Shown: piece by piece, positions 1,594 through 63,486 of the stretch
Position numbering within the stretch: position 1 is the stretch's first letter
Layout of the letters: each line of letters opens with the position of its first letter
Source of the DNA: a virus
Virus record (IMG/VR): IMGVR_UViG_3300029131_000181
Direction: 5' to 3' (one strand)
DNA: 64,000 bases
Notes under the pieces: model-generated
The model's database searches: none
The model's input: the letters and a program-made list of their open reading frames with translations, nothing else
Told to the model about the DNA's origin: nothing
Made by a program: the position numbers and the translations under genes

Positions 1594-1621
1594 ATTATAT
1601 GCAATTCGCACAGATGCACAA
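1594..1621 (-). promoter_or_regulatory. promoter P1 with conserved palindromic spacer element
   Basis: Minus strand reads TTGTGC-atctgtgcgaattgca-TATAAT (16 nt spacer). The spacer carries the recurrent TGTGCGAATTGC core. Confidence 0.5.
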
Positions 1622-1658
1622 TGTTTTTCTTTCTGGTAATTTATGGTAAGTGTTGTGC

Positions 1659-1698
1659 AAAAAAATAAGACCACCACCCTTTTTGGGGCAGTGGTCTT
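1659..1698 (-). terminator. intrinsic terminator after 1720..2169 gene
   Basis: Hairpin AAGACCAC...GTGGTCTT followed, in minus orientation, by a U-run (plus-strand A-run 1659-1666). Confidence 0.5.
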
Positions 1699-1719
1699 GA
1701 TTGCTATTGCTTTTGAAAA

Positions 1720-2169
1720 TCAATCCAGTAGTTTTCCGGCCTTGTATGAGTGGTACAAATAGCTCGGATTACAATAGTAAGTTGCAGTATTAAAATCTGA
1801 GATGTCATCGCTAATGAACGAGGAAAATACATCAATTACATCCTGGACACTAGGAGTGCTAGTACAGTCAAAGATGATGCGCTGGTACACTTTTCCGATA
1901 TCTGTATAAGATGGAACCTTGTAATGGCAGTTAGACACCGTATCATACGTTCCTTCCGGCACAGGAAAAAGCTCACAAATTTCATCGGCAGATTGCTCAA
2001 AGCTCTGGCAGTGAAACACATCCGCTGAGTCGAGAATTGCCTTGACTCCGTTTGTGCCAAGAGCAGAAACCACATCCTTGCGATGATTCCTCGTAACGCG
2101 GCCGATATATTCAATCAGGCTGCAGGTATAAAAGACATCGTTTTTGCTGTAGGTTGCAGTTTCAGTCAT
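1720..2169 (-). CDS. hypothetical protein
   Basis: 149 aa ORF with AAGGAGG RBS. ATGA start/stop overlap with the upstream DUF3990-like gene. Confidence 0.55.
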   Translation of the reverse strand: MTETATYSKNDVFYTCSLIEYIGRVTRNHRKDVVSALGTNGVKAILDSADVFHCQSFEQSADEICELFPVPEGTYDTVSNCHYKVPSYTDIGKVYQRIIFDCTSTPSVQDVIDVFSSFISDDISDFNTATYYCNPSYLYHSYKAGKLLD

Positions 2170-2618
2170 ACTTCAATCGCCTCCTTAAAAGAGAGACATT
2201 TCAAAGCGACTTCCGTGTGAAAGCTGATTTGATGCGTGGGATGCTTGAATTTTGCCAACGCCCAAAAAGCTTCACGGCTAATATCACCGCTTAGAAAGTC
2301 GTTGACGTAGTTCCAAATGGTGTCATCCGCCATGGGTCCTTCCACAATATCATAGTCATGATGTTTGCCCGAACGACATATAGCAATAAAATCAAGCCAC
2401 TCATCACTCATTTCGGGGAATTTCTTAATATTTAGCATAGGAGATTCTGTATATTCAAACACGTTGACAATACCACGAGACCTGCCTTTTTTTGACCAGC
2501 GAGCGGCTTGTTCGTAGTTGCTAGTGCAATAGAATCCCCATGAAAAATCTTTGGCGTACCTTGTTTTTCTGACCTCAGGGTTGCGGACTATTACATCGCT
2601 GCCATGATACAGAACCAT
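2166..2618 (-). CDS. DUF3990-like protein
   Basis: N-terminus MVLYHGSDV... after start refinement matches the DUF3990 signature (M-x-LYHGS). AAGGAAG RBS 7 nt upstream of ATG 2618. Confidence 0.55.
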   Translation of the reverse strand: MVLYHGSDVIVRNPEVRKTRYAKDFSWGFYCTSNYEQAARWSKKGRSRGIVNVFEYTESPMLNIKKFPEMSDEWLDFIAICRSGKHHDYDIVEGPMADDTIWNYVNDFLSGDISREAFWALAKFKHPTHQISFHTEVALKCLSFKEAIEV

Positions 2619-2739
2619 TATTATCACTTCCTTGCATATATTATACTTGTTTTTATGTGTTAACACAATCATTTCGTATGATTTTGGTTCCTACGCTTTT
2701 TGCTGAAAGAACCCGAATCAAAGTTTCGTTCTAGGAGTA

Positions 2740-6448: not shown

Positions 6449-6473
6449 TGCATTACGCTCCTTCTTGTTCATA

Positions 6474-6511
6474 CAAAAAGGGCGGGCTCCCTAAAAACAG
6501 GAAGTCCGCCC
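6474..6511 (-). terminator. leader intrinsic terminator between promoter P2 and the 5708..6448 gene
   Basis: GGGCGGACTTCC...AGGGAGCCCGCCC hairpin followed by a U-run in minus orientation. It ends 10 nt before the RBS. Confidence 0.5.
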
Positions 6512-6585
6512 TTTAAGCGAAATTGTGAATGTACGAAAGGCATAAAACCCTTTCGATATAGAATGTTATCTATCGTACAATTTTT

Positions 6586-6613
6586 ATTGTAGTCGGTTCG
6601 CACAGCTTGTCGA
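6586..6613 (-). promoter_or_regulatory. promoter P2 with conserved spacer element
   Basis: Minus strand reads TCGACA-agctgtgcgaaccgac-TACAAT. Confidence 0.45.
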
Positions 6614-6631
6614 GTAAATCAGGTGCAATTT

Positions 6632-7792
6632 TTATGGTTTGCAAATCCCACACGCCGAATACCCTTCCTGGATGAGCTCATCGCGGGGCCCCATATAGTC
6701 GATTCGATTCTTTTGACTCATCGATTCGACTGCAGAGCAATCGGGTTTGTGAAACTTCATAGTGCTCGTGTTCAGAACGTATGTCTCGTCTATGACAAGT
6801 GAAGCTTTGTCCTGTTCATCCTTGGAATCTGCAGCACTACCGGCTTCAATCCGATTTTCATCATGATATTCACCGGAAGTGAAACTTACCTCTTTGCCAT
6901 CCGAGGTGCAGTAAATATCACCCAGCAGGTCTGTGCGATAAACCTCGACACCTTTGTTTTGCAACTTGTCGAGTGTTTCCTGATGTGGATGACCGTAACT
7001 GTTCCCTGTGCCACAAGAAATCACAGCATATGTTGGATTTACCGCATCCAGAAAAGCCTCTGAGGTAGATGTACTTGAGCCATGATGCCCTACTTTCAGA
7101 ACTGTTGACTGAATGTCTTGTCCCGATGCAAGTATCACGTTTTCCGCTTCCTGTTCCGCATCTCCGGTAAAGAGGAACGAGGTGTCTCCATAGACAATAC
7201 GCAAAACAATCGAAGTATTGTTCGTGTCATCGGGAACAGAATTAACACCAACTATCGTGAATTCTGCTTTCCCTAGAGTATAAGTGTCTCCCACATCCGG
7301 TATCGTGATGCCTCCGCCTTTCTGTTCCGCGTGGCTTGCAAAGTCCCGAAATGCTTTGCTGTCGTATTCTGTCACAGGGCATAGAGTCATGTCCGCAGTG
7401 ACGGCCTCAAAGGCACCGGACAAGCCGCCGATGTGGTCTTCGTGCGCGTGAGTCCCAACGACATAATCCAGGTGCCCATCGGTTTCACGCTGCATAACAG
7501 AATATAAGAGGTTAGAATCATCGACATTACCGCCATCAATAAGCATTGAGTGGCCGTCGCAGGTGATAAGGGCGGAATCCGCCTGCCCTACGTCTATAAA
7601 GTGAATGGTAAAGCTGCCGTCCACCGAACCGCCAGCCGTCTGTTCACTGCTTGCAGTGCTTTCTGAGACGACCCCGGTGCTGGATGGACTTTCCGATATT
7701 ATCGGATTCTGACCGCAGCCGGTGAAGCTGAGTGCAAGGAGCGTAGCGATGATTGCCGCCGTGCTCCGGAATAGATTGTTTTTGAGTTTCAT
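6632..7792 (-). CDS. lipoprotein with metallo-beta-lactamase fold and C-terminal Ada-like zinc-binding domain (ComEC-C-terminal-like)
   Basis: Signal peptide plus lipobox (LSFTGC). MBL motif HAHEDHIGG. C-terminal FHKPDCSAV...GYSACGICKP resembles Ada-type Zn-binding domains. Confidence 0.75.
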   Translation of the reverse strand: MKLKNNLFRSTAAIIATLLALSFTGCGQNPIISESPSSTGVVSESTASSEQTAGGSVDGSFTIHFIDVGQADSALITCDGHSMLIDGGNVDDSNLLYSVMQRETDGHLDYVVGTHAHEDHIGGLSGAFEAVTADMTLCPVTEYDSKAFRDFASHAEQKGGGITIPDVGDTYTLGKAEFTIVGVNSVPDDTNNTSIVLRIVYGDTSFLFTGDAEQEAENVILASGQDIQSTVLKVGHHGSSTSTSEAFLDAVNPTYAVISCGTGNSYGHPHQETLDKLQNKGVEVYRTDLLGDIYCTSDGKEVSFTSGEYHDENRIEAGSAADSKDEQDKASLVIDETYVLNTSTMKFHKPDCSAVESMSQKNRIDYMGPRDELIQEGYSACGICKP

Positions 7793-7810
7793 ACTTTTTC
7801 TCCTTTCAAC

Positions 7811-7849
7811 AAAAAAAGCGGACCTACCCCGCTATGGGATAAGTCCGCT
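7811..7849 (-). terminator. leader intrinsic terminator between promoter P3 and the MBL-lipoprotein gene
   Basis: AGCGGAC-(19 nt)-GTCCGCT hairpin plus a 7-U run, immediately before the GGAGAAA RBS. Confidence 0.5.
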
Positions 7850-7902
7850 TAAAATACAGATTGTGAATCCTACTGATTTTTAGTATCTGTTCACATTTTA
7901 TA

Positions 7903-7929
7903 TTGTACGGCGTTCGTATATTTTGGCAA
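7903..7929 (-). promoter_or_regulatory. promoter P3 (divergent variant of the conserved motif)
   Basis: Minus strand reads TTGCCA-aaatatacgaacgccg-TACAAT. Confidence 0.4.
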
Positions 7930-7932
7930 GCG

Positions 7933-14574: not shown

Positions 14575-14735
14575 ATTCGGACTTCCAACTTTTCACGGGT
14601 TGCCCCGTTACTCAGTATGGATTTCTGCTTCATAGAGCGAGCTTACCGCAAGCCGCAGCTCTTGATAGAGGCTCGCTCTCCACAGACTTTAAGATTCGGT
14701 CGTCCTGACCGTACTGTTCGCCTGTGGTTATGAGG
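14575..14735 (-). ncRNA. candidate TnpB ωRNA / right-end element
   Basis: The region overlapping the tnpB 3' end contains GCTGGC-gta-GCCAGC and GAGCGAGC...GCTCGCTC hairpins. The position matches where TnpB ωRNAs are encoded. Confidence 0.3.
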
Positions 14736-15921: not shown

Positions 15922-15968
15922 AACAAACAAAATGCCCCGGCAGCATCCAATTCAGAAGCCGCCAGGGC
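15922..15968 (-). terminator. leader terminator between promoter P15 and the original helicase RBS (now followed by the tnpB element)
   Basis: GCCCCGGCAGC...GCCGCCAGGGC imperfect hairpin plus U-run, then an orphaned AAGGAGAA RBS. Confidence 0.4.
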
Positions 15969-15991
15969 ACAATTCTTATCTTATTAGGGTT

Positions 15992-16019
15992 ATTATATCT
16001 GATTCGCACAGATGTGCAA
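15992..16019 (-). promoter_or_regulatory. promoter P15 with conserved spacer element
   Basis: Minus strand reads TTGCAC-atctgtgcgaatcaga-TATAAT. Confidence 0.5.
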
Positions 16020-16958: not shown

Positions 16959-16981
16959 AGTTATTTCTCCGTCTGATTTTT

Positions 16982-17012
16982 ATTGTACGCAGTTCGCACA
17001 AAAGAAAAAGCT
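16982..17012 (-). promoter_or_regulatory. promoter P4 with conserved spacer element
   Basis: Minus strand reads ...ttttgtgcgaactgcg-TACAAT. The -35 is weak. Confidence 0.4.
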
Positions 17013-17283
17013 ACCCAACAGCCATAAGGCCACTGAGCAGCTTAGTGTGAATTCTATTGTGTGCATAGTATCTTTCGTACAAATTCGATGGTATGAGATT
17101 CGCACGCCGGGTCAAGACACATCGGCAGCTACGCATCCTGGCACCTACGGTTCCAACGGCAAAAAGCGCAGCTACGCAACAAATAAGCAAAAAGAAAAAG
17201 CCGCCCACCCGGTCAGGGGTGAACGGCAGGAAACGCTATCTATGTAAAAAAACGACTGAGTTCGTCAGAGGTCTTGTAATCTA

Positions 17284-20009: not shown

Positions 20010-20045
20010 AAACAAAAAGGACAACCTCAAAATGAGGCTGTCCTT
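20010..20045 (-). terminator. leader terminator between promoter (20101..20128) and the zinc-ribbon gene
   Basis: AAGGACAACCTC-aaaat-GAGGCTGTCCTT perfect 12 bp stem plus U-run. About 55 nt upstream of the start codon. Confidence 0.5.
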
Positions 20046-20100
20046 GCAAAAGCGGAATGTTAAAAATAAATTGGTAAGTGGTATCTTTGATACAACATCT

Positions 20101-20128
20101 ATCATAGCCATCTCGCACACATTGTCAA
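20101..20128 (-). promoter_or_regulatory. strong sigma-70-like promoter
   Basis: Minus strand reads TTGACA-atgtgtgcgagatggc-TATGAT (16 nt spacer). The spacer resembles the conserved element. Confidence 0.55.
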
Positions 20129-20130
20129 AC

Positions 20131-21986: not shown

Positions 21987-22173
21987 TTCGTGAATTACTC
22001 GAATTACTCAAGGCCAATCTTAGTACACCCCTCCTTCAGGTGGGGTAGTTGACTTGTATGAGGTTCGCATAATCGGTTAACCGTCATACCTCATGAATCC
22101 GACCAGACCGGACTTTAAATTTCTTTGTAAACAAAAAATAGTCCGCACAGAACTGAATCTGTACGGGCTCGTA

Positions 22174-22638: not shown

Positions 22639-22815
22639 GGTATGGTTCCTTTCGTTATGTGATTGGTTTTGGTTATTGGTATTCTGCTTGATGGTGTGTG
22701 GAATGATGTTATAGTCTTTATATTGAGTATATTATACCATGCTGTGATGATTTTAGCAATTCCATTTAAAGTGTTAGTACGCAAACAAAGCCCGGTTCAC
22801 TATTGGTCTCCAATA

Positions 22816-30236: not shown

Positions 30237-30245
30237 TAGAAAACA

Positions 30246-30279
30246 CAAAAAGAAGCCGCAGAAACCTATCCTCTGCGGC
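30246..30279 (-). terminator. intrinsic terminator about 20-50 nt downstream of promoter P6
   Basis: GCCGCAGA-aacctatcct-CTGCGGC hairpin plus U-run. Confidence 0.5.
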
Positions 30280-30303
30280 TACACTTATTTATCTTATATT
30301 TCC

Positions 30304-30330
30304 TATCATATCCAATTCGCACGGATGCAC
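30304..30330 (-). promoter_or_regulatory. promoter P6 with conserved spacer element
   Basis: Minus strand reads TTGTGC-atccgtgcgaattgga-TATGAT. Upstream (30328-30368) are four GGCAAAA repeats with about 11 bp phasing. Confidence 0.5.
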
Positions 30331-30488
30331 AAGGCAAAATTGTGGCAAAACCGTAGCAAAACAGTGGCAAAGACAAGGTACATGGGACTTGTTCCGTTGC
30401 TGAACAGGAAATGCCAAAAAACAACTGCTTTGCTCAAATATGTCATCTCGTGTATTTTCTTGTCATTTATTGTAAATTCGCGCTTGCT

Positions 30489-30568: not shown

Positions 30569-31969
30569 ATGATTTATGTTAACCTCGCCATGCCCGTGAT
30601 TTTCTATAAGCAGCTGCCCGGCATCGCTAAGAAGCTGGATGTGGATGCTGATTTTTTGAAAGGCTTTCTCACCAACGCCAGGTGTTATGTCGAGGATGCC
30701 GGAAAAGGTGAAGTGCTTGAGCTGGACAACTCGGCCGACACGATAACGAAAGTTGTCGCAACCCATGAGAAGCGTTTCTATGGCGCGGAAGCCATTGTGG
30801 AATTCGCCAAGAGCAAAGGCGTGGATATTCCTGCACTGAACCATTTTGAACTTGGTGCAGATATCTCTGCCCATGCAACGGAAGACCAAGTTGCCAACAT
30901 CACTGCATTGGCCGCACGAGTCGAGCGCCTCAATAATCGGTACAAGAGTCTTGCCCGGCTTGAAGCCCCGGACGTCATCCTGATGAACGAAGCAAGGATG
31001 GTGCGTGACGCAGTAGAGCAGCTGGAAGATAACAGCGGTACATACTCCCCGGCTCTTGACCAGAACGGGGTTGCCTATCAATCCTTGAAGGATATTGGGT
31101 ATTCTCTTGTCACCGGTTGGGACAAGTCGGTACTTGAAAAGAACAGCAATAAGGATACGGAGGCCACCTTTCCCAAAGAGCCCGACTTTCAAAGGCTGGC
31201 ATCGCTGGTCAAAAAAGCCATCGGAACCCGCACACAGGGTAAGTTTGCGTTTCAAGCGGGGCTGACTCGTGGATATATCAGTAACCTTGCGAACGGCAAC
31301 GCGAAAGCTCAGCCGACCGAGAATACCATCAAGAAAATTGCAAGCGCAACAGATGCTGTCACGGAGAACGAGCTTCGTATCGCCTGTGGGTATGAGCCCT
31401 TGCCTGACGACGGGAAAGACAAGCTCTCTATGCAGCGTGCAAGCATGTCTGATGACGCATGGCAGAAAGACAACGTGGATGCATTCCTCTCTTTTCTGAA
31501 TGAAACGATTCCAATGTCCACTCCTCTTTCGTCCACTGAAATTCTTCAAGCTCTTTTCAAGGAAAAATACGGTGACAAGAACGACCAGATTCTGCTGGAA
31601 AAGGTCTCTGCCCCCGGCACCTATCGTACGGAAGGTACGGCTGCTAATGTCATTCTACCCATTCGTCTTTGTTGGTTCAGCTTCAAGCGGATGCTGATGC
31701 AGACTCTCTATGTAGGACTTATCGGGCATTACAGCAAAAACGATGAGCTGTACATTACCGGATACATTTCTTCTGTGAAAGAGCTGCATGACGCGGTTCC
31801 GGCGCTGCGAGGCGGCATTGATGCGGCCTATGACGCGAGTCTGCCGGAGGGAATCGACATCATGAAGTTCCCGGTATTTTACACGGCTTCCAATGTTCAG
31901 GAAGCATACAAGCGGGTCCAGCAGAAAATCGTCTCCAAAATTGACGAGTCAGCCGCCGTAAGCTTGTGA
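30569..31969 (+). CDS. hypothetical protein with internal XRE-type HTH
   Basis: 466 aa. Segment RTQGKFAFQAGLTRGYISNLANGNAKAQPTENTIKKIASA fits the Cro/C1 HTH. Confidence 0.6.
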   Translation: MIYVNLAMPVIFYKQLPGIAKKLDVDADFLKGFLTNARCYVEDAGKGEVLELDNSADTITKVVATHEKRFYGAEAIVEFAKSKGVDIPALNHFELGADISAHATEDQVANITALAARVERLNNRYKSLARLEAPDVILMNEARMVRDAVEQLEDNSGTYSPALDQNGVAYQSLKDIGYSLVTGWDKSVLEKNSNKDTEATFPKEPDFQRLASLVKKAIGTRTQGKFAFQAGLTRGYISNLANGNAKAQPTENTIKKIASATDAVTENELRIACGYEPLPDDGKDKLSMQRASMSDDAWQKDNVDAFLSFLNETIPMSTPLSSTEILQALFKEKYGDKNDQILLEKVSAPGTYRTEGTAANVILPIRLCWFSFKRMLMQTLYVGLIGHYSKNDELYITGYISSVKELHDAVPALRGGIDAAYDASLPEGIDIMKFPVFYTASNVQEAYKRVQQKIVSKIDESAAVSL

Positions 31970-38321: not shown

Positions 38322-38358
38322 CAAACAAAAAGCCCCGCACAAGCAATTCATGCGGGGC
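38322..38358 (-). terminator. leader terminator between promoter P7 and the small membrane protein gene
   Basis: GCCCCGCA-caagcaattca-TGCGGGGC perfect 8 bp stem plus U-run, about 15 nt before the RBS. Confidence 0.55.
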
Positions 38359-38391
38359 AGCGATTCGATATACTTCTACTTTATATTTGCT

Positions 38392-38419
38392 ATTGTACGC
38401 AATTCGCACAGATTAGCAA
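38392..38419 (-). promoter_or_regulatory. promoter P7 with conserved spacer element (best consensus copy)
   Basis: Minus strand reads TTGCTA-atctgtgcgaattgcg-TACAAT. Confidence 0.55.
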
Positions 38420-38476
38420 TAGAAAATTACAAAAAATTCCCGCATGAGCGCTATCACTCACGCGGGAAAATGCTGC

Positions 38477-39085: not shown

Positions 39086-39123
39086 GTTTATATCTCCTAT
39101 TCGTTCTATCTTGGATTTTTATT

Positions 39124-39152
39124 TATTGTATGCGTATCGCACGTTTTTGCAA
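39124..39152 (-). promoter_or_regulatory. promoter P8 with conserved spacer element
   Basis: Minus strand reads TTGCAA-aaacgtgcgatacgca-TACAAT. Confidence 0.5.
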
Positions 39153-39290
39153 GAGTTCTGGCCCTAAGCACATTTTTGGCAGTTTGTCAATGGCCGCAGA
39201 ATATCAAAGTGCTGTTAAAGTTCAGGCGGAAAAACGTTCTGGAACCAACAAACCCGGGCTCCCGCCTCTTGCATTTGTTTACCGCCTTTT

Positions 39291-41500: not shown

Positions 41501-41539
41501 TGTTTATCCTCTGTAGCTTTTGTAATTCATTCACTTTTA

Positions 41540-41567
41540 ATTGTCTGCAATTCGCACAGTTTCGCAA
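41540..41567 (-). promoter_or_regulatory. promoter P9 with conserved spacer element
   Basis: Minus strand reads TTGCGA-aactgtgcgaattgcag-ACAATT. Confidence 0.45.
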
Positions 41568-41600
41568 CATGATATTGTCTGTGAATACCAGTTATCGGAG

Positions 41601-42239
41601 TCATAGTCCTTTGACAAAATTCGGGTCGTAGTGGGACAGGACTTCCTCGTTCAAGCTGTATTCGCAGTTGATAGTCGTTGCGTCATCCACATACATGCCT
41701 CGGTTTGCGTAGTATATTCCATCAATATAAATGGCGAACATGACGGACGGCATCAGTGCCTTTTCATTCACTGCGTAAATCAGGTATTCATCCAGATTAT
41801 CCTTGACCACCGCGCTCTTATTGATTTGGGCGATTTGCTGTCCGCCAAGAAATACAGGGCAGCATACTCCTTCTTTTCCAAAACCAATTTTGTAGCTCTG
41901 GTATTCCTCGCCATACAGCTGCATGGCGATAGAATTGTATCCTTGGAGGAATCCGGTTTTTGTATGGATGACGGAAATCTCGCCTACCCTGCGGTTGTTC
42001 TCACAGATAGCAAAAGGGTGTCTCAGAATATCTTTCGTGTTGATGCCGCGCATGTACGCCCTTGCGTCAGCAGCTGGCATGTATTGCAGCAGGAACTTGG
42101 AATCATTCAGCCGGATGCCATAACCTTGCCGCAGCACTTTCGGAATATAGTGTGCCTGCCCGATAACGGCCTTGCCTTTCACGATATCGAAGGTGAACTC
42201 ATATCCTTTCGATTTGGTTTGCTTCACAATCCATTGCAA
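41601..42239 (-). CDS. hypothetical protein
   Basis: 212 aa ORF. Confidence 0.55.
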   Translation of the reverse strand: MQWIVKQTKSKGYEFTFDIVKGKAVIGQAHYIPKVLRQGYGIRLNDSKFLLQYMPAADARAYMRGINTKDILRHPFAICENNRRVGEISVIHTKTGFLQGYNSIAMQLYGEEYQSYKIGFGKEGVCCPVFLGGQQIAQINKSAVVKDNLDEYLIYAVNEKALMPSVMFAIYIDGIYYANRGMYVDDATTINCEYSLNEEVLSHYDPNFVKGL

Positions 42240-42667
42240 AACTCAATCGCCTCCTTTTGCCTTCTCACTCGCTGGATAACCTTGTAAATACCAGGAACCG
42301 AGAGCTGATATTTTTCGGATAGTTTCTGCACCGGCACGCCGCTCTCGTATTCTCGAAAGATATTCTCATTGCGCGGTCTTTGTCTAATTTTGATGCGCTC
42401 ATTTCTACGGTTTTCAGTCAGGCCCGCATCGTTGGCAACCATGCTGCAATATCCTTCTGCCACGTTGAATTTTGCAATCATTTCCTTGAGAGGGACACTG
42501 GCTTTGTACGCAGCAAGAATTTCGGCCTTTCTAGCATCCTCTACCTGCGCCAACTGAATTCTGGCCTCCTGTTTCGCGTCGTCTAACGCTCGATAGCATG
42601 TACGGACGCTCAACCTGTATTTTGCGGCAAGCTCCTCAATGGAATAGCCGTTGCCGTAGTCTTTCAT
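42224..42667 (-). CDS. triple-HTH DNA-binding protein (fourth member of the family at 1..1481)
   Basis: Repeats IEELAAKYRLSVRTCYRALDDA; LKEMIAKFNVAEGYCSMVANDAG; VQKLSEKYQLSVPGIYKVIQRV. Start moved to MKDYGNG because the 5' extension is the promoter P10 motif. Confidence 0.55.
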   Translation of the reverse strand: MKDYGNGYSIEELAAKYRLSVRTCYRALDDAKQEARIQLAQVEDARKAEILAAYKASVPLKEMIAKFNVAEGYCSMVANDAGLTENRRNERIKIRQRPRNENIFREYESGVPVQKLSEKYQLSVPGIYKVIQRVRRQKEAIEFCNGL

Positions 42668-42751
42668 GATATTGCAATTTCGCTCAATCAACTTTTTGCT
42701 TGCAAATTTTGAGATGGTACTCAACTCCTTTGCTTTACGCTTTATTTCTGA

Positions 42752-42779
42752 TTGTCTGCAATTCGCACAAATGGGCAAC
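42752..42779 (-). promoter_or_regulatory. promoter P10 with conserved spacer element
   Basis: Minus strand reads TTGCCC-atttgtgcgaattgcag-ACAATC. Confidence 0.45.
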
Positions 42780-46198: not shown

Positions 46199-46259
46199 CT
46201 CTCCGGTTTTACTCTATTTGCTATCAAGAGGGCTTGATACGAAGTATCTTTTGCTTCTA

Positions 46260-46288
46260 ATTATCTTCGATTCGCACGATTCAGCAAC
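46260..46288 (-). promoter_or_regulatory. promoter P11 with conserved spacer element
   Basis: Minus strand reads TTGCTG-aatcgtgcgaatcgaag-ATAATT. Confidence 0.45.
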
Positions 46289-48053: not shown

Positions 48054-48146
48054 AATTTTTGTTTCTCCACATTCAGTTTTTTAGCTGCTAAGATTCTCAT
48101 CCCTACTGCATCGGTATCGCCCCATCTCACAATCGCTCTGTCTTTA

Positions 48147-48174
48147 ATTGTCTGCAATTCGCACGATTCCGCAA
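48147..48174 (-). promoter_or_regulatory. promoter P12 with conserved spacer element
   Basis: Minus strand reads TTGCGG-aatcgtgcgaattgcag-ACAATT. Confidence 0.45.
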
Positions 48175-48210
48175 TAAACAAAACCCACAGGTGAGAGAAT
48201 GACCTGTGGG
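48173..48210 (-). terminator. intrinsic terminator about 100 nt downstream of promoter P13
   Basis: CCCACAGGT-cattctctc-ACCTGTGGG perfect 9 bp stem plus U-run. Confidence 0.55.
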
Positions 48211-48306
48211 CTTCGAAAAGAGGTAATTATGCGCAAGCAGACACGGCATCGATTCGTGGCGACCAACTACAATCACTACAAATGTCTCTTGCCGTTTCTC
48301 TTGTAC
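48185..48306 (-). ncRNA. candidate ~120 nt small RNA (promoter P13 to terminator)
   Basis: Bounded by a consensus promoter and a strong terminator. No credible ORF. The listed 78 aa ORF spans both promoters. Confidence 0.3.
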
Positions 48307-48313
48307 AATTCTT

Positions 48314-48341
48314 ATTGTACGAAGTTCGCACAGCAGCGCAA
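48314..48341 (-). promoter_or_regulatory. promoter P13 with conserved spacer element
   Basis: Minus strand reads TTGCGC-tgctgtgcgaacttcg-TACAAT. Confidence 0.5.
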
Positions 48342-48374
48342 GAGCAAATTTGCTTGGTTCCAAATATTTTCAAG

Positions 48375-49064: not shown

Positions 49065-49236
49065 CGTTCGAGCCTCACGCGACCCCCTTAGAAAGTGTTG
49101 CGTATCCGGACGCGCAGGTCGTTAACGCCAACACATTGCAAAAGTAAAGCATTCATGAACGATTTTGCGATTTAGCCCTGTAATCACCAAAATATGGTAT
49201 AATGCATTTGTAAAGAAATGTAGAAAGAAAAGAATT

Positions 49237-50634
49237 ATGACAATCGGAGATATCCTGATACAAATAAATCAAGCAAATCTCGACACGATGCTTCCCCTTA
49301 CAGCAGTGAAAACAAGCGCAGATATCGAACGGTACTACAAAGAAGGCTACAGTGTCGGCATAACGGCCGACGAATTTGCTAAGAAGTATCCGAGGCTTCC
49401 TGTCGCCAGAATCTATGCTACGCACAATATGCTTGCTCCTCTTTATTATTGCGAGCTCGATAGCACGACCGTTCCCATTGTTCTCTCTCTGAACATTTAC
49501 GGGGACAAGCGTCTGGCTGTGAACGGCGAATCGGACGAAAAGTTTCAGCAGAGAGTTCTGGATATGGCCGAGAAAATCTCATCGGGAAACGCCCCCTTCA
49601 TTCGCAGCTACCTCTTTTCCCTGGAAAACAGCCTTCGTGTGTCTGTTCTTTCCAGGTACATTGAGTTGTCTAACCCTGACGAGGACCTGTACTCACTCTT
49701 TCTGGACCTTTATCGTACCAGCGACTTTGGCTTCTCTGCTCTCAAGGAGGATGACCTCCAAAAAGTCTTTGCCGAAAAATCTCAGAAACAAAAGCAGGAT
49801 ACTATAAAGAGGCTATCCAGCCTGCCGGATACCGTGACTGTTTATCGTGGGGAAGGCAGCAAGTCTACTACATACAAAAAGTCCTTTTCCTGGACCACGA
49901 GCTACAAGGCAGCCTGTTTCTTCGCCTGCCGCATTCCGAGTCTCGAGAACAGCAGAATCATCACTGCCCATATCAACAAAAGTGATATTATCGAGTATTT
50001 TCCGGACGATGAGGAAAAAGAGGTCCTTGTCCCCACGGCTGCCGTAAAAGATGTAAAGGTCGATGTGCTTCTCGGTATCAACGCTCTGACAGACGAAATC
50101 CAGGCGTTCTACCCTCTCTACCAGCACTACCGGAGCCGCATTTCCACTCTGTATGATGCTTATGGCCGGGCTAATGATGAGGAGCACGACGCCGAGCATA
50201 CGCTGCGAGTTCTCTTTGATGCGCTGCTTTTGGTTCAGGTTCAGGGCATTGCCTTAACAAGAAAAGAATCCCACCAGCTATGTGATGCGATTCTTTACCA
50301 TGATATTGGGCGGACAAACGATGATGTCGATGACAGCCACGGAGCAAAGTCTAGGGACATTTATTATGACACAGTCTCCGACTGCAATCCGGCAACTGCT
50401 TTCCTCATCGAGTATCATTGCTTGGATGACCGCAAGGCTCTTGCAGACCTCAAAACATCCAATATTCGAAACAAAGAACGGGTGTGGCTGCTATATACGA
50501 TTCTCAAGGATGCAGATGCTTTAGACCGTGTGCGGTTCGGGATGCGGGCCGTGGACCCTAAGTATTTCCGCAACGAGATAACCCACAAACTACTGCCCAC
50601 TGCGCAGAGCTGTGTAGGGCAGCTGAAACTATGA
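49237..50634 (+). CDS. HD-domain phosphohydrolase with ~330 aa N-terminal domain of unknown function (weak R-S-E ADP-ribosyltransferase-like signature)
   Basis: C-terminal HD motifs (EHTL...LYHDIGR...DHGAKS...LKDADALDR). N-terminal VTVYRGEG...SFSWTTS...EEKEVLVP loosely resembles Arg / STS / ExE ART motifs but with atypical spacing. Start moved to ATG 49237. Upstream extended -10 TGGTATAAT at 49195-49203. Confidence 0.6.
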   Translation: MTIGDILIQINQANLDTMLPLTAVKTSADIERYYKEGYSVGITADEFAKKYPRLPVARIYATHNMLAPLYYCELDSTTVPIVLSLNIYGDKRLAVNGESDEKFQQRVLDMAEKISSGNAPFIRSYLFSLENSLRVSVLSRYIELSNPDEDLYSLFLDLYRTSDFGFSALKEDDLQKVFAEKSQKQKQDTIKRLSSLPDTVTVYRGEGSKSTTYKKSFSWTTSYKAACFFACRIPSLENSRIITAHINKSDIIEYFPDDEEKEVLVPTAAVKDVKVDVLLGINALTDEIQAFYPLYQHYRSRISTLYDAYGRANDEEHDAEHTLRVLFDALLLVQVQGIALTRKESHQLCDAILYHDIGRTNDDVDDSHGAKSRDIYYDTVSDCNPATAFLIEYHCLDDRKALADLKTSNIRNKERVWLLYTILKDADALDRVRFGMRAVDPKYFRNEITHKLLPTAQSCVGQLKL

Positions 50635-50644
50635 GGAGGATACT

Positions 50645-52174
50645 GTGCAGAACGAAAATGGTGTTTTGGCAGTGCAGGAAGATTTCGGTAATGCCTTAGT
50701 CGATAAATACGCACCGGTATGGGATAAGAAGTATCGGAGCAAAGGCGAGTCTATCTGGGTATTTCAGAGAAGAACCCTGTCCAGCGCTTGCCAGGTTGCG
50801 ACGACATTGCATGACATAGATTTTGGGAAAGCATCTACTTTCCTCTTTCACCTGGCCCGTGGAGCTGAGGAGTGCAAACCCATCATTGATGCCGTCAGCT
50901 CTCAGGTAGAGCTTGCCATGGCAAACCCCGACAAGTTCATTAAAGGCTATCATCAGTTTTTGCAGGGGCTCACAAAGCCCATCAAGAAGAATAAGGACTA
51001 TGCTCTGTATTTCAAGGCTATTGCTTATGCGCAGGAATGTGTTTATTCAGGATTATCCATTGACGGAGTTATGGAACGTAATGATTCTGTCCTGTACGCG
51101 GTAATCGATATGCTGATGCAGGGGAGCGAATACCTCAAGCCTCAGGAATTCGATATTGTGAACAACATTGTCGGTATCTCAACTGAGAACGAGCCAATCA
51201 TCATCCGGGACCCCTATCCCCTCGCCGATGTTCCTGTCTATTATAGTGATGCTCTTTTCAACAATCGGCCATACGACAAATGTGAATCTCAGATTTCTGA
51301 AGACAGACGCTTGGATATGGTCTTTTCGTACTATAAGCGTTATGGTTATGAGGACGTTGCCGACTTCGACAGCATCAACAACCTCGCTTTGCTCTCACAT
51401 CTGTATACGAACACAGTCCTTTCGATGGCTACCTATGTGAACGAGTATACCGTGGACATGCTGCCGGACAAGCCGCTGATTGAGAATACTCCGAACATGT
51501 GGTCCTGGTGGCCAAAGCCCATCTCACCAAAATATACGACAGAGTTTCTGAAAGATACGCTGCACCATCGCCGCAGAACTCTTCCCGCCAACGGTGCATT
51601 GTTTCAGTTTGATGCCTGCCAACTGATACAGGAAATTAAGCTGAAAGAGACTTGCCGCGACAACGAGATTGTGTGTCTGTATAAAATCGTAACCAAGTTC
51701 GGTGACCTGGCCGGATACTATAACACAAGCACCGAGTGGTTTTATATTTTGACTGACCGAGCTCAATTTCCAGAGCTGGTTGACAGCGTCACGAATCTGA
51801 TTCTCTGGCTGTACACTTCTCTCGTCTGTGATTTGCCGGATGTCCTGCCCACTGATGCGTCGTTCCGGTCTTCGTTTGTGACACACGCGGATACTCCATT
51901 CGGGATTCGTTGTCTGATGATTGGCGGCAAGCCCCGCGATTATCGCAAGAAAGACAATGAAGACGATGAGCCGCTGCGAGTGTTCGACAAGTCCAAGTAT
52001 GATGCTTCGTCCAAGAACATCAATGGTTTTATTCGTCGCCTGCCTGCCGGGCAGAAAGCGAGTGAACGTGCTACCATGATAGCTGAAAGCTATGGCTATG
52101 AGCTGAAGAGTGATGAAACCTATGTAACGCCGTTCGTTAGAAGGCAGTGGCTGAAAAAGAAAACTGAAGAATAA
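50645..52174 (+). CDS. hypothetical protein (509 aa), translationally coupled to the HD protein
   Basis: GAGGAGG RBS overlapping the upstream stop. GTG start at 50645 (alternative ATG 50658). Confidence 0.55.
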   Translation: MQNENGVLAVQEDFGNALVDKYAPVWDKKYRSKGESIWVFQRRTLSSACQVATTLHDIDFGKASTFLFHLARGAEECKPIIDAVSSQVELAMANPDKFIKGYHQFLQGLTKPIKKNKDYALYFKAIAYAQECVYSGLSIDGVMERNDSVLYAVIDMLMQGSEYLKPQEFDIVNNIVGISTENEPIIIRDPYPLADVPVYYSDALFNNRPYDKCESQISEDRRLDMVFSYYKRYGYEDVADFDSINNLALLSHLYTNTVLSMATYVNEYTVDMLPDKPLIENTPNMWSWWPKPISPKYTTEFLKDTLHHRRRTLPANGALFQFDACQLIQEIKLKETCRDNEIVCLYKIVTKFGDLAGYYNTSTEWFYILTDRAQFPELVDSVTNLILWLYTSLVCDLPDVLPTDASFRSSFVTHADTPFGIRCLMIGGKPRDYRKKDNEDDEPLRVFDKSKYDASSKNINGFIRRLPAGQKASERATMIAESYGYELKSDETYVTPFVRRQWLKKKTEE

Positions 52175-52320
52175 ACACGAAAGCGCCCACCGAAGATGGT
52201 GAGCGCTTTAATTTTTCCGTTCCAGAAAAATTTTCCCAAAAATACTAAAAGTTTTTTGAACTCAGAAAAGTTTTGCTGTTTTCCCAAGATTTTTTTTGGT
52301 TTTGGAAAATTATGCGGCTA

Positions 52321-52998
52321 TCATTGGGGATTCACTATCGGCGTTGCTGTTCTTGCTTGTGGGTCAATGGAATAAGTGGCGTCAATGCATACCGTATTGC
52401 TCCCTGTGTCTTTTCTCACAAAAACTGGCATTACAATTTCTGTGATGGATGTTGGGTCATTGCCATTCTCTGCATAGGTTTCGGCATATTCCTGCCAACG
52501 GATATCCACGTAGGCATTAGAATGTGGTTCCAGCAATGTTGTTCCTCCCGGGGTACACTCAAAGCCATTGATGGAGCCTTTATCCAGAATGACATCGATA
52601 CGGTCGTTGGTTTTGTTTTCGTAGTAGGCTTTTGCCGTATAGCCCATGAAACTATCAGAATAAAATCCGCAAACGACCATGCTGCAGGCATTATTGTCGA
52701 ACAGCACAATATCCGTGGGCTGAATCTCGTGTTTTGGTTCTGTCGCGTTCTCTTCACCTTTCGGATAAATCACAAAGTCATCATCGACAGGGTCATCACG
52801 ATTCGACACATCCCATTCTGCTTCATCATAGACATCGATGTGAAGTTTGACGGTATCGATGTCTTGCGGTTTCACTCCATAGATTTCCAGTCCTGCTTTA
52901 TCCCACGAAACGACCTCGGTGGTTTTCACTCCTGGTCCAATTTCCGGGAACCAACTGGTATCTGCCGGGATTCCATAAAATTTGTGCGTAGGGCACAC
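52321..52998 (-). pseudogene. lipoprotein gene, 3' portion (split by the IscB element)
   Basis: About 60% identical to the C-terminal 225 aa of the intact paralogue 55365..56444 (for example YPKGEENATEPKHEIQPTD; GSINGFECTPG). Lacks signal peptide and start context. Confidence 0.6.
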
Positions 52999-53106
52999 CG
53001 TCTACAGTCGTTTGCGACTTAGGCGGTGAGGAATGCGCTAACCAAGATTTGATTTGAGGTAAACTTAGTTAACGCAAATACCCTGCTACTCCTTTCTTTG
53101 AATGAT

Positions 53107-61438: not shown

Positions 61439-61442
61439 ATCG

Positions 61443-62438
61443 TCACTTTTCTCCTTTCATTTGGTTGTAAGAAATTGTCCGCATAGCACGCCAATCACGG
61501 ATTTTACATTCGTATTTCTTATTTTGCTTAGCCGCCTCATCGAACAGTGTTTCCTGTTCAAAATCACTTGCAAACAGGGATAGCTGCTCGTAGTCGTCTG
61601 ATATGTACAGTTCTTTGCCCGGAATCGTCCCTTTTAGGCCGTCCATCTGCCATATGTTCCAGCAGATTACATTGGCAATCTGGTTCAGTTCCTTGGCAGT
61701 CGGCTCCCGCTGCCATCGCTCCTGCATATAGTCCACGAAGGTCATCAGCAGGTTGATACGGGCAACAAGCAGGTTGTCACCCTGATATTCGTAGCCGTAG
61801 GTACTTTCAAAGGCTCGCCGCGTCCATTTCAGCCAGTCAGCCTCATTATTGGTATTCTCGTTTACGACCCGCAGCTTTCTGTCCAGAATCCCAATTCTGT
61901 TTTCAATCGGAAGTTCTTCGCCGGTAGCGGCATCATAGCGGGATACCAAATAAGGGGCCTCGCCGCAGGTGATTTCCAGCCGCCGAGAATCAACATACCG
62001 CTGCCAATCCCGTTCTTTCTCAAAGTAAACAGGCTCTTTCGTTGGCTCCCAGTGTTCACCGTTCAGCGTATTAAATACGTTCTCGCGTCCAAACCAATCG
62101 TCATCGCATTTATTGTTCATATAGCAGACGACCCAAGAGGGCGTAAAGACCTCGGCTTTGGATTTCGTTCTTGCCGCCTGTTCTTCTTCCGCTTTCAAAA
62201 TGCGCGGCTGGATAAGATTGGCATATACCCCGGAAATCAGCTCCGGCGTGATTTGATTATCCTGCCGATAGCCATCGCCGTATCGTTCATAAGTATTTGT
62301 TGCCCAGATTATATTTTCACCTGTCGTCTTATCTTCCAGCAGAAACCGCATTGCCGTTCTGACCGGATAAGAATACAGGTCAATCAGTTTGCCCAGATGT
62401 GCCACCCCCGCGCAGCGCAGGAAGCAGCCAGAACCCAT
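61443..62438 (-). CDS. DNA methyltransferase N-terminal half (motifs X and I)
   Basis: KAEVFTPSWVVCYM (motif X FTP) and RRLEITCGEAPYLVS (motif I-like (D/E)xxCGxxxYL). The start codon is uncertain because a hairpin directly abuts ATG 62438. Confidence 0.55.
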   Translation of the reverse strand: MGSGCFLRCAGVAHLGKLIDLYSYPVRTAMRFLLEDKTTGENIIWATNTYERYGDGYRQDNQITPELISGVYANLIQPRILKAEEEQAARTKSKAEVFTPSWVVCYMNNKCDDDWFGRENVFNTLNGEHWEPTKEPVYFEKERDWQRYVDSRRLEITCGEAPYLVSRYDAATGEELPIENRIGILDRKLRVVNENTNNEADWLKWTRRAFESTYGYEYQGDNLLVARINLLMTFVDYMQERWQREPTAKELNQIANVICWNIWQMDGLKGTIPGKELYISDDYEQLSLFASDFEQETLFDEAAKQNKKYECKIRDWRAMRTISYNQMKGEK

Positions 62439-62440
62439 CC

Positions 62441-62480
62441 TTACGGAGTTCTTCTCCGTAAGGAAAGGGACGTCCCTTTC
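62441..62480. promoter_or_regulatory. hairpin CCTTACGGAG-N5-CTCCGTAAGG followed by the perfect 16 bp palindrome AAAGGGACGTCCCTTT
   Basis: Read directly from the sequence. Located immediately upstream of the MTase N-half ORF. Confidence 0.5.
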
Positions 62481-62695
62481 GCGCTGATTGTTATTTTTGC
62501 AAACGTTTCTTGCTATTTTATATGGCAGCCTTTCTCTTTAAGCTGCATTTCTGTTATTTGATATTTGCTTTTTATTGCTGTGCAGTTTCAAGCAGGTATC
62601 AAGCTCTTCGTTGAGATTGTATCGGCTGTGGTTCTTGAACTTGAAAATATTATAGCATATAGCACCGTTTCTCTCAACGCTTGTTTTATCGGCAC

Positions 62696-63421
62696 TCATC
62701 CGCCTTTAACTGTCTCAAACTCCAAAGTAATGGTATCCACGATACAAAAAGCCTGTGACCCGTATGGGGTTCCATCACGATAAGTAGAAAACGTATCACA
62801 GGAAAGTACTCCGCCTTCCAGATACACTTCTTTGACCGGCGTATGTCCTACCACTTGCAGATATTCGCCGCCGCGATACAAACGTTTTGCATTCTGATTT
62901 GGAGACAGCTGCGGGCGATACCAGATAGGAGAATCTGTTGCCCACATTGTTTCACAGCTCATTTGGTTGATAGCTTTGACAGCCGCGAGAACATTTTTTC
63001 GGTTCTGTGGTGCTACCCGGAGCTGAACAAAGAGATTTGCAAGGCCGCCGTGCATGAAAAGTGTTTTGTCAATTTTGTGGATATATGCAAGCTGACTTTT
63101 CTTTGGCAAGGCATTTGTCAACTTTTTAATTTCTTGACACACGAGTCCTCTCTTTTCCGGATGGAATCCGGTTTCCGGCTCTCCCCAAATGTAGCTCAGG
63201 TCATGGTTCCCGTAGCACCAGAGAGTATCTGGATGTTCCTTGGCAAACGTGATTGCGGTTTCATAGGTCTCCAGATACTGCGCATCATCATGTACCCCGA
63301 AATCATCTGCCAGGTCCATAAGACAGATAGCTTTGTCTGCAATGCCTTTTTTCATGATGGTATTTGCCTGCGCAAACATCCAGGGTTTCAAATGGCAATC
63401 TGGAATGACTAAGACCTTCAT
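62696..63421 (-). CDS. calcineurin-like metallophosphoesterase (Ser/Thr phosphatase-like)
   Basis: Motifs DCH (VIPDCHLKP), DLADDFG, GNHD, GH (VVGHTP). GAGAGGTG RBS. Confidence 0.75.
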   Translation of the reverse strand: MKVLVIPDCHLKPWMFAQANTIMKKGIADKAICLMDLADDFGVHDDAQYLETYETAITFAKEHPDTLWCYGNHDLSYIWGEPETGFHPEKRGLVCQEIKKLTNALPKKSQLAYIHKIDKTLFMHGGLANLFVQLRVAPQNRKNVLAAVKAINQMSCETMWATDSPIWYRPQLSPNQNAKRLYRGGEYLQVVGHTPVKEVYLEGGVLSCDTFSTYRDGTPYGSQAFCIVDTITLEFETVKGG

Positions 63422-63457
63422 GGCTCTTCACCTCTCTTTTTTGTGTTTACTATTTAG

Positions 63458-63486
63458 ATTATATACGATTCGCACCGAACGTCGAG
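63458..63486 (-). promoter_or_regulatory. promoter P14 with conserved spacer element
   Basis: Minus strand reads CTCGAC-gttcggtgcgaatcgta-TATAAT. Confidence 0.45.

Follow-up and report, generated by a model that had tools for sequence, protein, structure and literature searches.

The window analysed here is a stretch of 64,000 nucleotides (nt), or 64 kb, from the viral record IMGVR_UViG_3300029131_000181 of IMG/VR. It carries a repeated set of promoters, hereafter class I, in which a conserved 13-bp box, YGTGCGAAYYGCR, occupies the spacer between the -35 and -10 hexamers at a fixed register (-25 to -13). By their hexamers and spacing, these are sigma-A-type promoters. Compared across copies, the conserved element reads as an asymmetric 13-mer, not as a palindrome. 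Judged by sequence, promoters of at least two classes are present in the phage, one of which is defined by the box. We consider it likely that the box is a factor-binding element, and that this is what sets class I apart.

Census of the motif

A 35-nt weight matrix was built from ten seed sites and then iterated to convergence. It finds 19 sites within the window, 19 of 19 on the minus strand, while 20 shuffled windows give 0 to 2 each. An earlier note on this DNA had proposed a common operator inside the promoter spacers, which should align better than shuffled sequence; by this measure the motif is real. All 15 positions that it listed (1.6 to 63.47 kb) are recovered by the matrix. The promoter near 20.1 kb, which it had set apart as a variant, is a called member (20095..20129), and three further sites, at 17082, 20958 and 22047, were not on its list.

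A search for TGTRCGAATTGCGYACA with at most 2 mismatches gives 8 matches in the window, against 0.01 expected. On the minus strand there are 15 copies of the core GTGCGAA, where a second-order Markov model predicts 5.6; the plus strand has 3. The promoter register is occupied by 14 of the 15 minus-strand copies, and 1 of the 15 lies outside it. Every site is intergenic and lies 20 to 130 nt 5' of a gene, with genes called independently on separately assembled metagenome contigs. As had been pointed out before, the open reading frames (ORFs) 954..1619, 42224..42778 and 48127..48363 owe their N-terminal extensions to reading through the motif. A k-mer search of the literature returned chance primer matches only.

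Anatomy of class I promoters

The site alignment gives the consensus cTTGc-N6-YGTGCGAA-YYGCR-TAyAAT, followed by an A-rich stretch of 5-6 nt, a T and an R. Of the -35 only TTG(c) is left; a spacer of 16 nt leads to a TAyAAT -10, and positions -15/-14 lack TG. The predicted start lies about 7-8 nt 3' of the -10, after the A-rich discriminator. With 7 to 11 of 12 hexamer matches, the promoters are of moderate quality. They are presumably used by sigma-A polymerase; the hexamers make the host enzyme the likely user, and the additional 13 bp need another reader.

The placement of the core in the promoter spacer, as first described, is borne out, with the register TTG-N7-GTGCGAA-N5-TAnAAT. When the window is pooled with 31 related loci, this register is kept by 47 of the 51 family sites whose -10 is a strict TAnAAT; in 76 of 94 distinct contexts, TTG stands at N7. 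In this pool, GTGCGAA has 94 distinct contexts on the gene strand and 11 antisense. Counts over relatives such as these include copies that are not phylogenetically independent.

In terms of information content, the consensus amounts to about 30 bits, spanning -35 to +2. The invariant part of the box is TGCGA at -23 to -19, and C-21 is the same in 57 of 57 and in 125 of 125 clusters. The TTG at -34 to -32 is kept in at least 54 of 57 clusters. Between them, positions -30 to -26 are near-random, at 0.1-0.3 bits per position. Since this stretch is randomised and C-21 is fixed, the box appears to be kept by selection and not merely by shared ancestry of copied promoters. An identical box is found in a second clade, where proteins are only about 50% identical.

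Symmetry of the box

The element had originally been presented as an inverted repeat of dimer type. Logos of matrix-selected sites are partly circular, and an anchor-defined set was used where this matters. Its members were selected on TTG, the left core (at most 1 mismatch), A-11 and T-7, with the right arm ignored; the set has 267 distinct sites, in 125 clusters below 80% identity. Over the 125 clusters, the arm pairs are complementary at 3.2 of 8 positions on average, and the description as a repeat does not hold. The three best-matching pairs are those imposed by the -10 hexamer. At the five free arm positions the mean is 1.78 complementary, against 1.25 for random. Individual bases contradict a dyad as well, with G-15 in 81% (T needed), A-13 in 64% (G needed) and C-10 in only 36%. 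In a diverged clade the -10 becomes TAAAAT, TATTAT or TAGAAT, and the left half is unaltered.

A few window copies do form good dyads (48308 and 38386), and these are the ones that had been noticed. As the box is asymmetric, a symmetric dimer operator is unlikely. The specific version TGTRCG-N5-CGYACA, with its right half over the -10, can draw on site 48308 (TGTGCGAAC/TTCGTACA, 7 of 8 pairs) and similar ones at 38386, 20552 and 16976, on C as the commonest base at -10 and a common one at -14, and on an XRE-type helix-turn-helix (HTH) protein, typically dimeric, encoded beside a box promoter; yet the near-random free positions, the wrong bases at -15 and -13, and a diverged clade that loses the right arm while the left half stays invariant make it highly improbable.

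The perfect palindrome at 29959-29974, once taken as a relative of the motif, has GTGCGTT, no TTG or -10 in register, and is not called by the matrix. A cruciform or hairpin promoter of the N4 type was ruled out, the dyad being unconserved. On the minus strand at 30440-30480, in the intergenic region between the XRE gene and its divergent promoter, there is a box-like stretch, AGCAAGCGCGAATTTACAAT, with GCGAA 2 nt and not 5 from TACAAT. This may be what is left of a promoter, or else a site in its own right.

Two promoter classes and gene orientation

The box is oriented with its gene. Scanning viral contigs in the correct register gave at least 116 loci (950 kb), almost all from this phage family, with 283 matrix matches; one locus has matches on both strands. 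In L144-L147 a box promoter drives an opposite-strand gene, and the box is not a property of the minus strand, as had been supposed.

The statement that essentially every promoter carries the box does not stand either, given box-less canonical promoters on the same strand. These class II promoters, of the form TTGnnn-N14-TGnTATAAT, belong to the same genome, and it is their presence that makes the box the mark of a class. The following were located:

62639..62677, minus strand: class II promoter, TTGAGA-N14-TGCTATAAT
22721..22759, minus strand: class II promoter, TTGCTA...TGGTATAAT
23345-23383, minus strand: class II promoter, canonical and box-less
31999-32037, plus strand: class II promoter, canonical and box-less
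L140 14274, 19031 and 20377: class II promoters ahead of tRNA arrays, outside the window

As for the genes behind box-less promoters, they comprise a type IIG-like restriction-modification cluster, a PH-domain protein, small accessory genes, an IS200 transposase and tRNAs. No box promoter is found in the 10 kb past the left window end, nor between 22081 and 30299 in the window. Virion genes were sought near box promoters in the at least 116 loci, by running Pfam on the 10 commonest new ORF clusters, and only DNA ligase, an esterase and proteins of no known function were found.

Two gene blocks touch on this arrangement. Inside the minus-strand array, a plus-strand block at 48657-53022 has four genes (135, 489, 509 and 249 amino acids) behind a canonical promoter at 48375-48403. 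Neither Pfam nor PADLOC gives a match for these four, and PADLOC gives none for the XRE protein. An argument that the block holds defence genes expressed in lysogeny was dropped when PADLOC found nothing. On the minus strand, at 24845-27955, a type II restriction-modification pair looks complete; a DUF4238 gene separates its members. The endonuclease is GmrSD_N plus HNH (PADLOC REase_II, 2e-129) and the methylase is EcoRI-like (366 bits).

Leader RNAs and leader terminators

A strong intrinsic terminator follows 8-9 of the 19 window promoters, 20 to 105 nt past the inferred start and before the Shine-Dalgarno sequence or start codon. The promoters with a leader terminator are 1588, 6580, 7896, 15986, 17082, 20095, 30299, 38386 and 48308. 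Across the family, leader terminators are present in about half of 148 clusters. They are associated with a -10-like TRTR start at +1 (TGTACG... or TATAAG...), with TRTR/terminator counts of 60/19/14/55 over the 148 clusters (odds ratio 12, p 1e-11, in a statistic that ignores relatedness). Leaders that have a terminator show a median length of 126 nt, those that lack one 33 nt.

A single family accounts for most of the terminated leaders. It is composed of UGUACGAUAGAUAMC, a small hairpin (UAGAU/AUCUA), a variable GC hairpin, CGUACA, AUUCACAAU and the terminator, and CGUACA closes a stem with the leader 5' end to give a three-way junction. There are 134 distinct copies, 113 of which have the box core exactly 23 nt upstream. 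A covariance model (R1, with E-values that are rough) finds 138 copies in 867 kb of relatives (L148-L246) and 4 in the window. Pairing is present in 89.8% of cells, against 40-48% with slid partners, and 0 of 500 shuffles reach the observed value. The variable hairpin and the terminator are backed by many compensatory changes; in the closing stem, which hardly varies, 90% is paired. Modules of promoter, leader and terminator, about 140 bp long, recur more than 100 times. Orthologous promoters of the diverged clade keep their leader terminators, with different stem sequences.

Against Rfam, the leader matches no family at the gathering score and nothing credible at E up to 1. Inspection for a competing antiterminator pairing in the leader gave no feasible structure. 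In about half of the class I units, the leader with its intrinsic terminator would form a second control layer, separate from the box, with read-through needed for gene expression. If there is an antitermination mark, the leader RNA or the first transcribed bases would be better candidates for it than the box.

The class I sites and their leaders are as follows:

1588..1622, minus strand: class I promoter; -35 TTGTGC, core GTGCGAA at 1605-1611, -10 TATAAT; matrix score 41.3; drives a tandem-HTH operon
1498..1587, minus strand: leader of promoter 1588; starts TATAGAACG; terminator hairpin 1533-1498, before the ATG at 1481
6580..6614, minus strand: class I promoter, called by the matrix; -35 TCGACA, core at 6597-6603, -10 TACAAT
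6473..6579, minus strand: canonical copy of the leader family; UGUACGAUAGAUAAC, three-way junction, CGUACA, AUUCACAAU, terminator; model R1 81.4 bits, E 1.8e-13
7896..7930, minus strand: class I promoter; variant core ATACGAA at 7913-7919, -10 TACAAT; 5' of the metallo-beta-lactamase (Apyc1-like) gene 6632-7792
about 7809..7895, minus strand: degenerate leader-family copy; TGTGAACAGATAC...ATTCACAAT and terminator; R1 44.5 bits
15986..16020, minus strand: class I promoter, called by the matrix; core at 16003-16009, -10 TATAAT
15932..15985, minus strand: short leader of 15986; AATAAGATAAG; terminator hairpin 15970-15932; then a TnpB gene
16976..17010, minus strand: class I promoter; poor -35 TTTTTC, core at 16993-16999, -10 TACAAT; Shine-Dalgarno sequence and ATG directly after, without leader terminator
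17082..17116, minus strand: class I promoter, called by the matrix; -35 TTGACC, core at 17099-17105, -10 TACCAT
17001..17081, minus strand: leader-family member; TGTACGAAAGATAC...ATTCACAC and terminator; R1 21.8 bits; ends at the next promoter
20095..20129, minus strand: class I promoter (the former variant); -35 TTGACA, core GTGCGAG, -10 TATGAT
20012..20094, minus strand: degenerate leader-family copy; TGTATCAAAGATACC... and terminator; R1 35.1 bits
20552..20586, minus strand: class I promoter without leader terminator; orthologous promoter at position 770 of the diverged relative L002
20958..20992, minus strand: weak class I site; core ATGCGAT, -10 TAGAAT; matrix score 24.6
22047..22081, minus strand: weak class I site; core ATGCGAA, -10 TACAAG; matrix score 24.0
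30299..30333, minus strand: class I promoter; core at 30316-30322, -10 TATGAT; divergent from the XRE-HTH gene
30245..30298, minus strand: short leader of 30299; TATAAGATAAAT and terminator; conserved in L005, L127 and L133, relatives in which compensatory changes are seen; followed by a fragment of a DUF4379 gene
38386..38420, minus strand: class I promoter; best palindrome-like copy, TGTGCGAATTGCGTACA
38332..38385, minus strand: short leader of 38386; TATAAAGTAGAAG; terminator 38358-38332, before a 66-amino-acid gene and helicase operon
39119..39153, minus strand: class I promoter; core GTGCGAT; without leader terminator
41534..41568, minus strand: class I promoter; -10 GACAAT; without leader terminator
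42745..42779, minus strand: class I promoter; 5' of the 147-amino-acid tandem-HTH gene
46254..46288, minus strand: class I promoter; -10 GATAAT
48141..48175, minus strand: class I promoter; -10 GACAAT; 5' of an SPFH/flotillin gene
48308..48342, minus strand: class I promoter; TGTGCGAACTTCGTACA; leader with terminator 48215-48179, then promoter 48141
63452..63486, minus strand: class I promoter; -35 TCGACG, -10 TATAAT; 5' of a metallophosphatase gene

Ending as it does at the next promoter, the unit at 17001..17081 resembles a stand-alone short RNA. At the place orthologous to the 38386 leader, terminators are present in L114 and L005. Behind promoter 30299 and its terminator, a gene fragment with DUF4379, a treble-clef zinc finger, lies on the minus strand at 30100-30260. 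The plus-strand ORF 30037-30522 is probably its antisense shadow and not a gene.

Candidate regulators

The candidate binders of the box are the tandem-HTH proteins and the XRE protein, as seen from their predicted domains. Three stand out in the window:

954..1481, minus strand: candidate regulator, 175 amino acids; three Mor/C-type HTH modules; first gene of its operon
42224..42667, minus strand: candidate regulator, 147 amino acids; three tandem HTH modules; Pfam Mor 50.5 bits; PHROG 'late transcriptional activator'; AlphaFold2 pLDDT 83
30569..31969, plus strand: candidate regulator, XRE-type HTH, 466 amino acids; divergent from box promoter 30299, with no box of its own; position kept in all relatives

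The first belongs to an operon that occupies 1-1481 (minus strand) and continues in L140 9484-12437. It encodes tandem-HTH paralogs of 175, 172 (446-964) and 317 amino acids, the first two with three HTH modules each and the last, which extends past the window end, with more, and then an AAA ATPase; the 147-amino-acid protein is a fourth paralog. Several tandem-HTH proteins, a type that would suit asymmetric sites, are encoded behind box promoters. With PF08765 (Mor), the scores are 50.5 and 38.1 bits (cut-off 24.9). The matches span positions 54-99 of a profile of 107, which takes in just its HTH part, and the Mor N-terminal dimerisation domain is missing from these proteins.

When the tandem-HTH model was compared with the PDB by Foldseek, no match reached significance. 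The best of these matches are Cbp2 (2LVS) and Tc3, both tandem-HTH monomers, as well as Mu C and Mor, with Mu C in a transcription initiation complex (9L0X) among them. Cbp2 and Tc3 read asymmetric DNA as monomers. The box promoter has three KTGC units, at -34, -24 and -17, and it is tempting to speculate that these may pair off with the three HTH modules of the candidate proteins. In the XRE protein, the HTH region is conserved better than the rest.

How the box may work

In the reading that we favour, a single DNA-binding protein, encoded by the phage and sequence-specific, would dock on the box, probably as a monomer or in some other asymmetric form. We infer protein binding, the identity of the binder and the sign of regulation from sequence features. 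The docked protein would switch all class I promoters together, and box-less promoters would escape. One regulator for the whole gene set was also the proposal of the earlier note. Its core survives, in that a box in fixed register implies a common factor or contact; the symmetric dimer and the reach to every minus-strand promoter do not.

A protein on -25 to -13 would exclude RNA polymerase, leading to coordinated silencing (a carrier or lysogenic state) or to early-gene shut-off. By analogy with known phage systems, we tentatively take the factor on the box for a repressor. A repressor target had been suggested before and is reasonable, with SPBRE and its protein MrpR as precedent, although the symmetric form of the suggestion is not supported. 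MrpR on SPBRE and C1 on the asymmetric P1 operators are repressors, and they serve as the model for class I silencing. An asymmetric 13-bp site falls in the size class of known phage-wide operators. Asymmetric boxes spread over a phage genome are known to us in two forms, the operators of monomeric or asymmetric repressors (P1 C1, L5 gp71, SPbeta MrpR) and the MotA box of T4. The fixed register is no argument against an operator, as that of SPBRE is likewise fixed. A state with class I off while the box-less accessory cassettes stay on fits the gene types behind class II.

Several points weigh against a repressor. The sign of regulation is not readable from sequence. No integrase and no homologue of C1 or of MrpR, which has a tyrosine-recombinase fold, is found in the scanned window proteins, and window ORFs of at least 60 amino acids have no match in SPbeta (tblastn, 1e-4). 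A scan of bacterial genomes, which used N6 instead of N5 before the -10, gave 0 of 102 loci with at least 2 matrix matches and is uninformative on hosts, prophages and lifestyle. The anti-defence genes of class I (Apyc1-like, AcrVA2-like, methylases) are expected to act at entry. Their timing fits early promoters that are later shut off, and not lysogenic silencing in particular. The Pfam and PHROG labels of the tandem-HTH proteins are Mor/C 'late transcriptional activators'. Lastly, a moderate class I core beside strong TGnTATAAT promoters resembles an activator-dependent pattern.

These last points lead to the opposite sign. The box would then be a positive specificity element, on which an activator or sigma adaptor, made by the phage or delivered with the virion, recruits or re-programmes host sigma-A polymerase, and the tandem-HTH proteins would be the activators. 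The register to the -10 is fixed, as this account would have it, and the core is moderate (16-nt spacer, no extended -10, TTGc and not TTGACA) against strong canonical promoters in the same genome. The Mor match (50.5 bits) and the PHROG label agree with it, and so does the Mu C 9L0X fold match, which is not significant. However, TTG at the -35 is conserved to the same degree as the -10, which sets class I apart from MotA- or Mor-dependent promoters, and the box centre at -21 lies under the polymerase footprint, from where we know of activation only by MerR-type dimers on long spacers. Box promoters precede even the genes for the candidate activators, and anti-defence genes should not wait for a newly made activator. 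On balance we regard activation as unlikely.

A different kind of positive control, also raised in the earlier note, is loading of a Q-like antiterminator. It would bind the box once polymerase has left the promoter and halted at a -10-like sequence within the first transcribed bases, and ride with polymerase through the leader terminator and later ones. The idea gains from the leader terminators before the start codon at 8-9 of 19 promoters and about half of the 148 clusters, from their TRTR association, and from their retention, with compensatory changes, in diverged relatives. The spacer position is that of the lambda Q-binding element. Yet the box is as conserved without a terminator and TRTR start as with them, and it is not what singles out terminated units. 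With a promoter for each cassette, long-range read-through is unneeded. No Q-family domain is found in the about 70 window proteins scanned (Pfam, PHROGs), and a structured leader RNA is an equally good or better antitermination signal. We very much doubt that the box is a Q-like loading site.

A broader version would join the box, the first transcribed bases (TGTACGAUAGAUA... or TATAAG...), the three-way-junction leader and the terminator into a multiplexed promoter-proximal antitermination system. One phage factor, or a put-like leader RNA, would make polymerase terminator-resistant at more than 50 promoters per genome. We think such a system rather unlikely. If true, a leader-terminator layer acting as a phage-wide antitermination regulon would be a new scale for that mechanism, and it would set immediate-early versus delayed-early timing of accessory and anti-defence genes.

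Alternatively, the whole 36-bp consensus may be read by a different holoenzyme, with a phage-encoded or alternative host sigma or another polymerase, and the sigma-A likeness would be partly coincidence. The information content of about 30 bits from -35 to +2 is above that of ordinary sigma-A promoters, a distinct canonical class stands alongside, and huge phages often encode sigma factors. What speaks against this is that hexamers and spacing are plainly sigma-A-like, and that no sigma or polymerase gene is found in the window or in 20 kb of flanks. To our knowledge, and compared by eye, the box fits no consensus of sigma-54, sigma-H, ECF or sporulation sigmas, of the Spo0A 0A box, CcpA cre, LexA or lambda CII. 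The Spo0A 0A box is TGTCGAA, so that the class I box has an extra base, and the lambda CII repeat is TTGC-N6-TTGC. We give this reading little credence.

A sigma-54 promoter was considered and rejected, GTGCGAA standing directly before YTGC, with no GG 10 bp 5' of GC; the sigma-54 consensus is TGGCAC-N5-TTGC at -24/-12. As the earlier note held, the box is not the Firmicutes LexA (Cheo) site, whose consensus is CGAAC-N4-GTTCG: GCGAAC is present only in some copies and the GTTCG arm in none.

There may also be no dedicated factor, if host polymerase is tuned by the box as a feature intrinsic to the spacer, or if the likeness is maintained by repeated copying and recombination of cassettes, a process proposed for the PeSL cassettes of T4-type phages. 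The region is indeed an array of cassettes (terminator, promoter, often a leader), like the hyperplastic regions flanked by PeSL (PMC2839356, PMC4122927), and whole modules of about 140 bp recur more than 100 times. Recombination, however, would homogenise whole stretches, yet -30 to -26 is random and TGCGA invariant. We know of no base-specific polymerase contact of such strength at -24 to -18. A box without a factor seems quite improbable to us.

The phage family and its gene content

A megablast of the window against GenBank phages gave no match. Protein searches found distant matches only, namely Faecalibacterium and Streptococcus phage helicases (about 50%) and an SPbeta-like Staphylococcus phage protein (41%). 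Identical proteins are present in many independent human-gut assemblies, on contigs of 253-272 kb, and one family protein is listed in 2,124 blocks of an assembly collection. We conclude that the source is a very prevalent uncultivated gut jumbo phage of about 260 kb; a phage-like plasmid is possible. IMG/VR holds dozens of relatives. The XRE protein is found at 94-99% identity in 25 loci, and the second clade has about 50% protein identity.

In terms of gene content, the window encodes helicases, nucleases, methylases, IS200/IS605 genes, anti-defence-like genes and the tandem-HTH proteins. Four anti-defence-like genes lie behind box promoters on the minus strand: a metallo-beta-lactamase with a faint anti-Pycsar Apyc1 signal (6632-7792), an AcrVA2-like gene (40017-40904), NADAR (34822-35274) and DUF3990, related to ADP-ribosyltransferases (2166-2672). 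An IS200/IS605 element with Y1 transposase and a TnpB-like gene, at 32043-33812 on the plus strand, adjoins the XRE gene. A separate TnpB (14728-15837, minus strand) comes directly after a box promoter and leader terminator. In the same neighbourhood of L145, TnpB is placed differently, which indicates that IS200/IS605 elements are mobile within the family.

Just past the left window end, at L140 14549-20294, there are at least 13 tRNA genes in arrays, one with an odd anticodon loop. A ribozyme like that of hepatitis delta virus, of the Faecalibacterium prausnitzii type (RF02682, 60.4 bits; gathering score 44), lies at 43594-43663 on the minus strand, between a VWA gene (43690-45384) and the next ORFs. 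It is the sole Rfam family that passes in the window. The ribozyme type and the helicase relatives hint at a host in Clostridia.

The family is extremely common in the human gut, and searches of GenBank phages and proteins gave no cultured or annotated relative. For such a phage, the promoter model (class I, class II, leaders with or without terminator) can be turned into transcription-unit maps, corrected gene starts and regulatory classes. As class I drives many anti-defence and nuclease cassettes, its timing bears on overcoming host immunity. The model also offers handles that are concrete and cheap to work with, namely the 13-bp box itself, the few HTH proteins named as candidates, and a structured leader, about 100 nt long, for which Rfam has no entry.

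Comparison with known systems

The closest likeness is to SPBRE, a conserved spacer element of SPbeta promoters that is bound by MrpR in ChAP-seq and electrophoretic mobility shift assays (PMC10516654). We rebuilt it from the SPbeta sequence as tAGACAAAtAcAAAwAATATGTATAtAAt, with 10 copies at genes where MrpR was mapped. Like the class I box, it is a phage-specific motif (about 15 bp) with a fixed register in the spacer and -10 of sigma-A-type promoters, and it is gene-oriented. SPbeta, a large Firmicutes phage, carries it at about 10 operons, whereas class I is denser, with 19 sites in 64 kb. A motif placed in many sigma-A-type promoters and oriented with the genes is what we find here too, in the 19 window sites and the 125 clusters. 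The two sequences are unrelated, many class I units add a leader terminator, and repression of class I is a prediction.

As for other repressor sites, P1 C1 operators and L5 gp71 stoperators are asymmetric sites of 13-17 bp, bound by a monomeric repressor at many promoters genome-wide. They vary in place relative to the -35 and -10, and L5 sites also lie inside transcription units. In contrast, the class I register is strict and the box rarely lies outside promoters.

The lambda Q-binding element lies between the -35 and -10 of PR'. About half of class I resembles the lambdoid PR'/tR' arrangement, with a spacer element, a -10-like start and a terminator that ends a short leader. Unlike a lambdoid genome, which has one PR', class I has dozens, the box is also found without a terminator, and there is no Q-family protein among the about 70 scanned.

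Among activator systems, the T4 MotA box stands in for the -35, with its centre at -30 and a distance of 11-13 bp to the -10, and Mu Mor and C bind upstream of or over the -35. They share with class I a phage-wide, asymmetric box in fixed register and, as it would be here, a host sigma-70 polymerase working with a phage protein; the candidates here are of Mor/C type. In class I, however, the -35 TTG is retained and the box is centred at -21, so that it does not have the MotA arrangement. The candidate proteins are tandem HTH arrays without the Mor dimerisation part, unlike Mor and C.

The PeSL cassettes of T4-type phages have a terminator and then an early promoter, between accessory genes (PMC2839356, PMC4122927). 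Class I is similar in that promoter and stem-loop modules are repeated between small accessory cassettes in plastic regions. Its order is different, with promoter, structured leader and terminator placed between the promoter and its own gene, and host, sigma and sequence differ as well.

Taken with SPBRE, P1, MotA and PeSL, phage-specific promoter boxes and promoter-terminator cassettes are known kinds of element. What is new against the literature searched is the sequence of the box, its spacer position with a kept -35, and its pairing with a structured leader and terminator more than 100 times.

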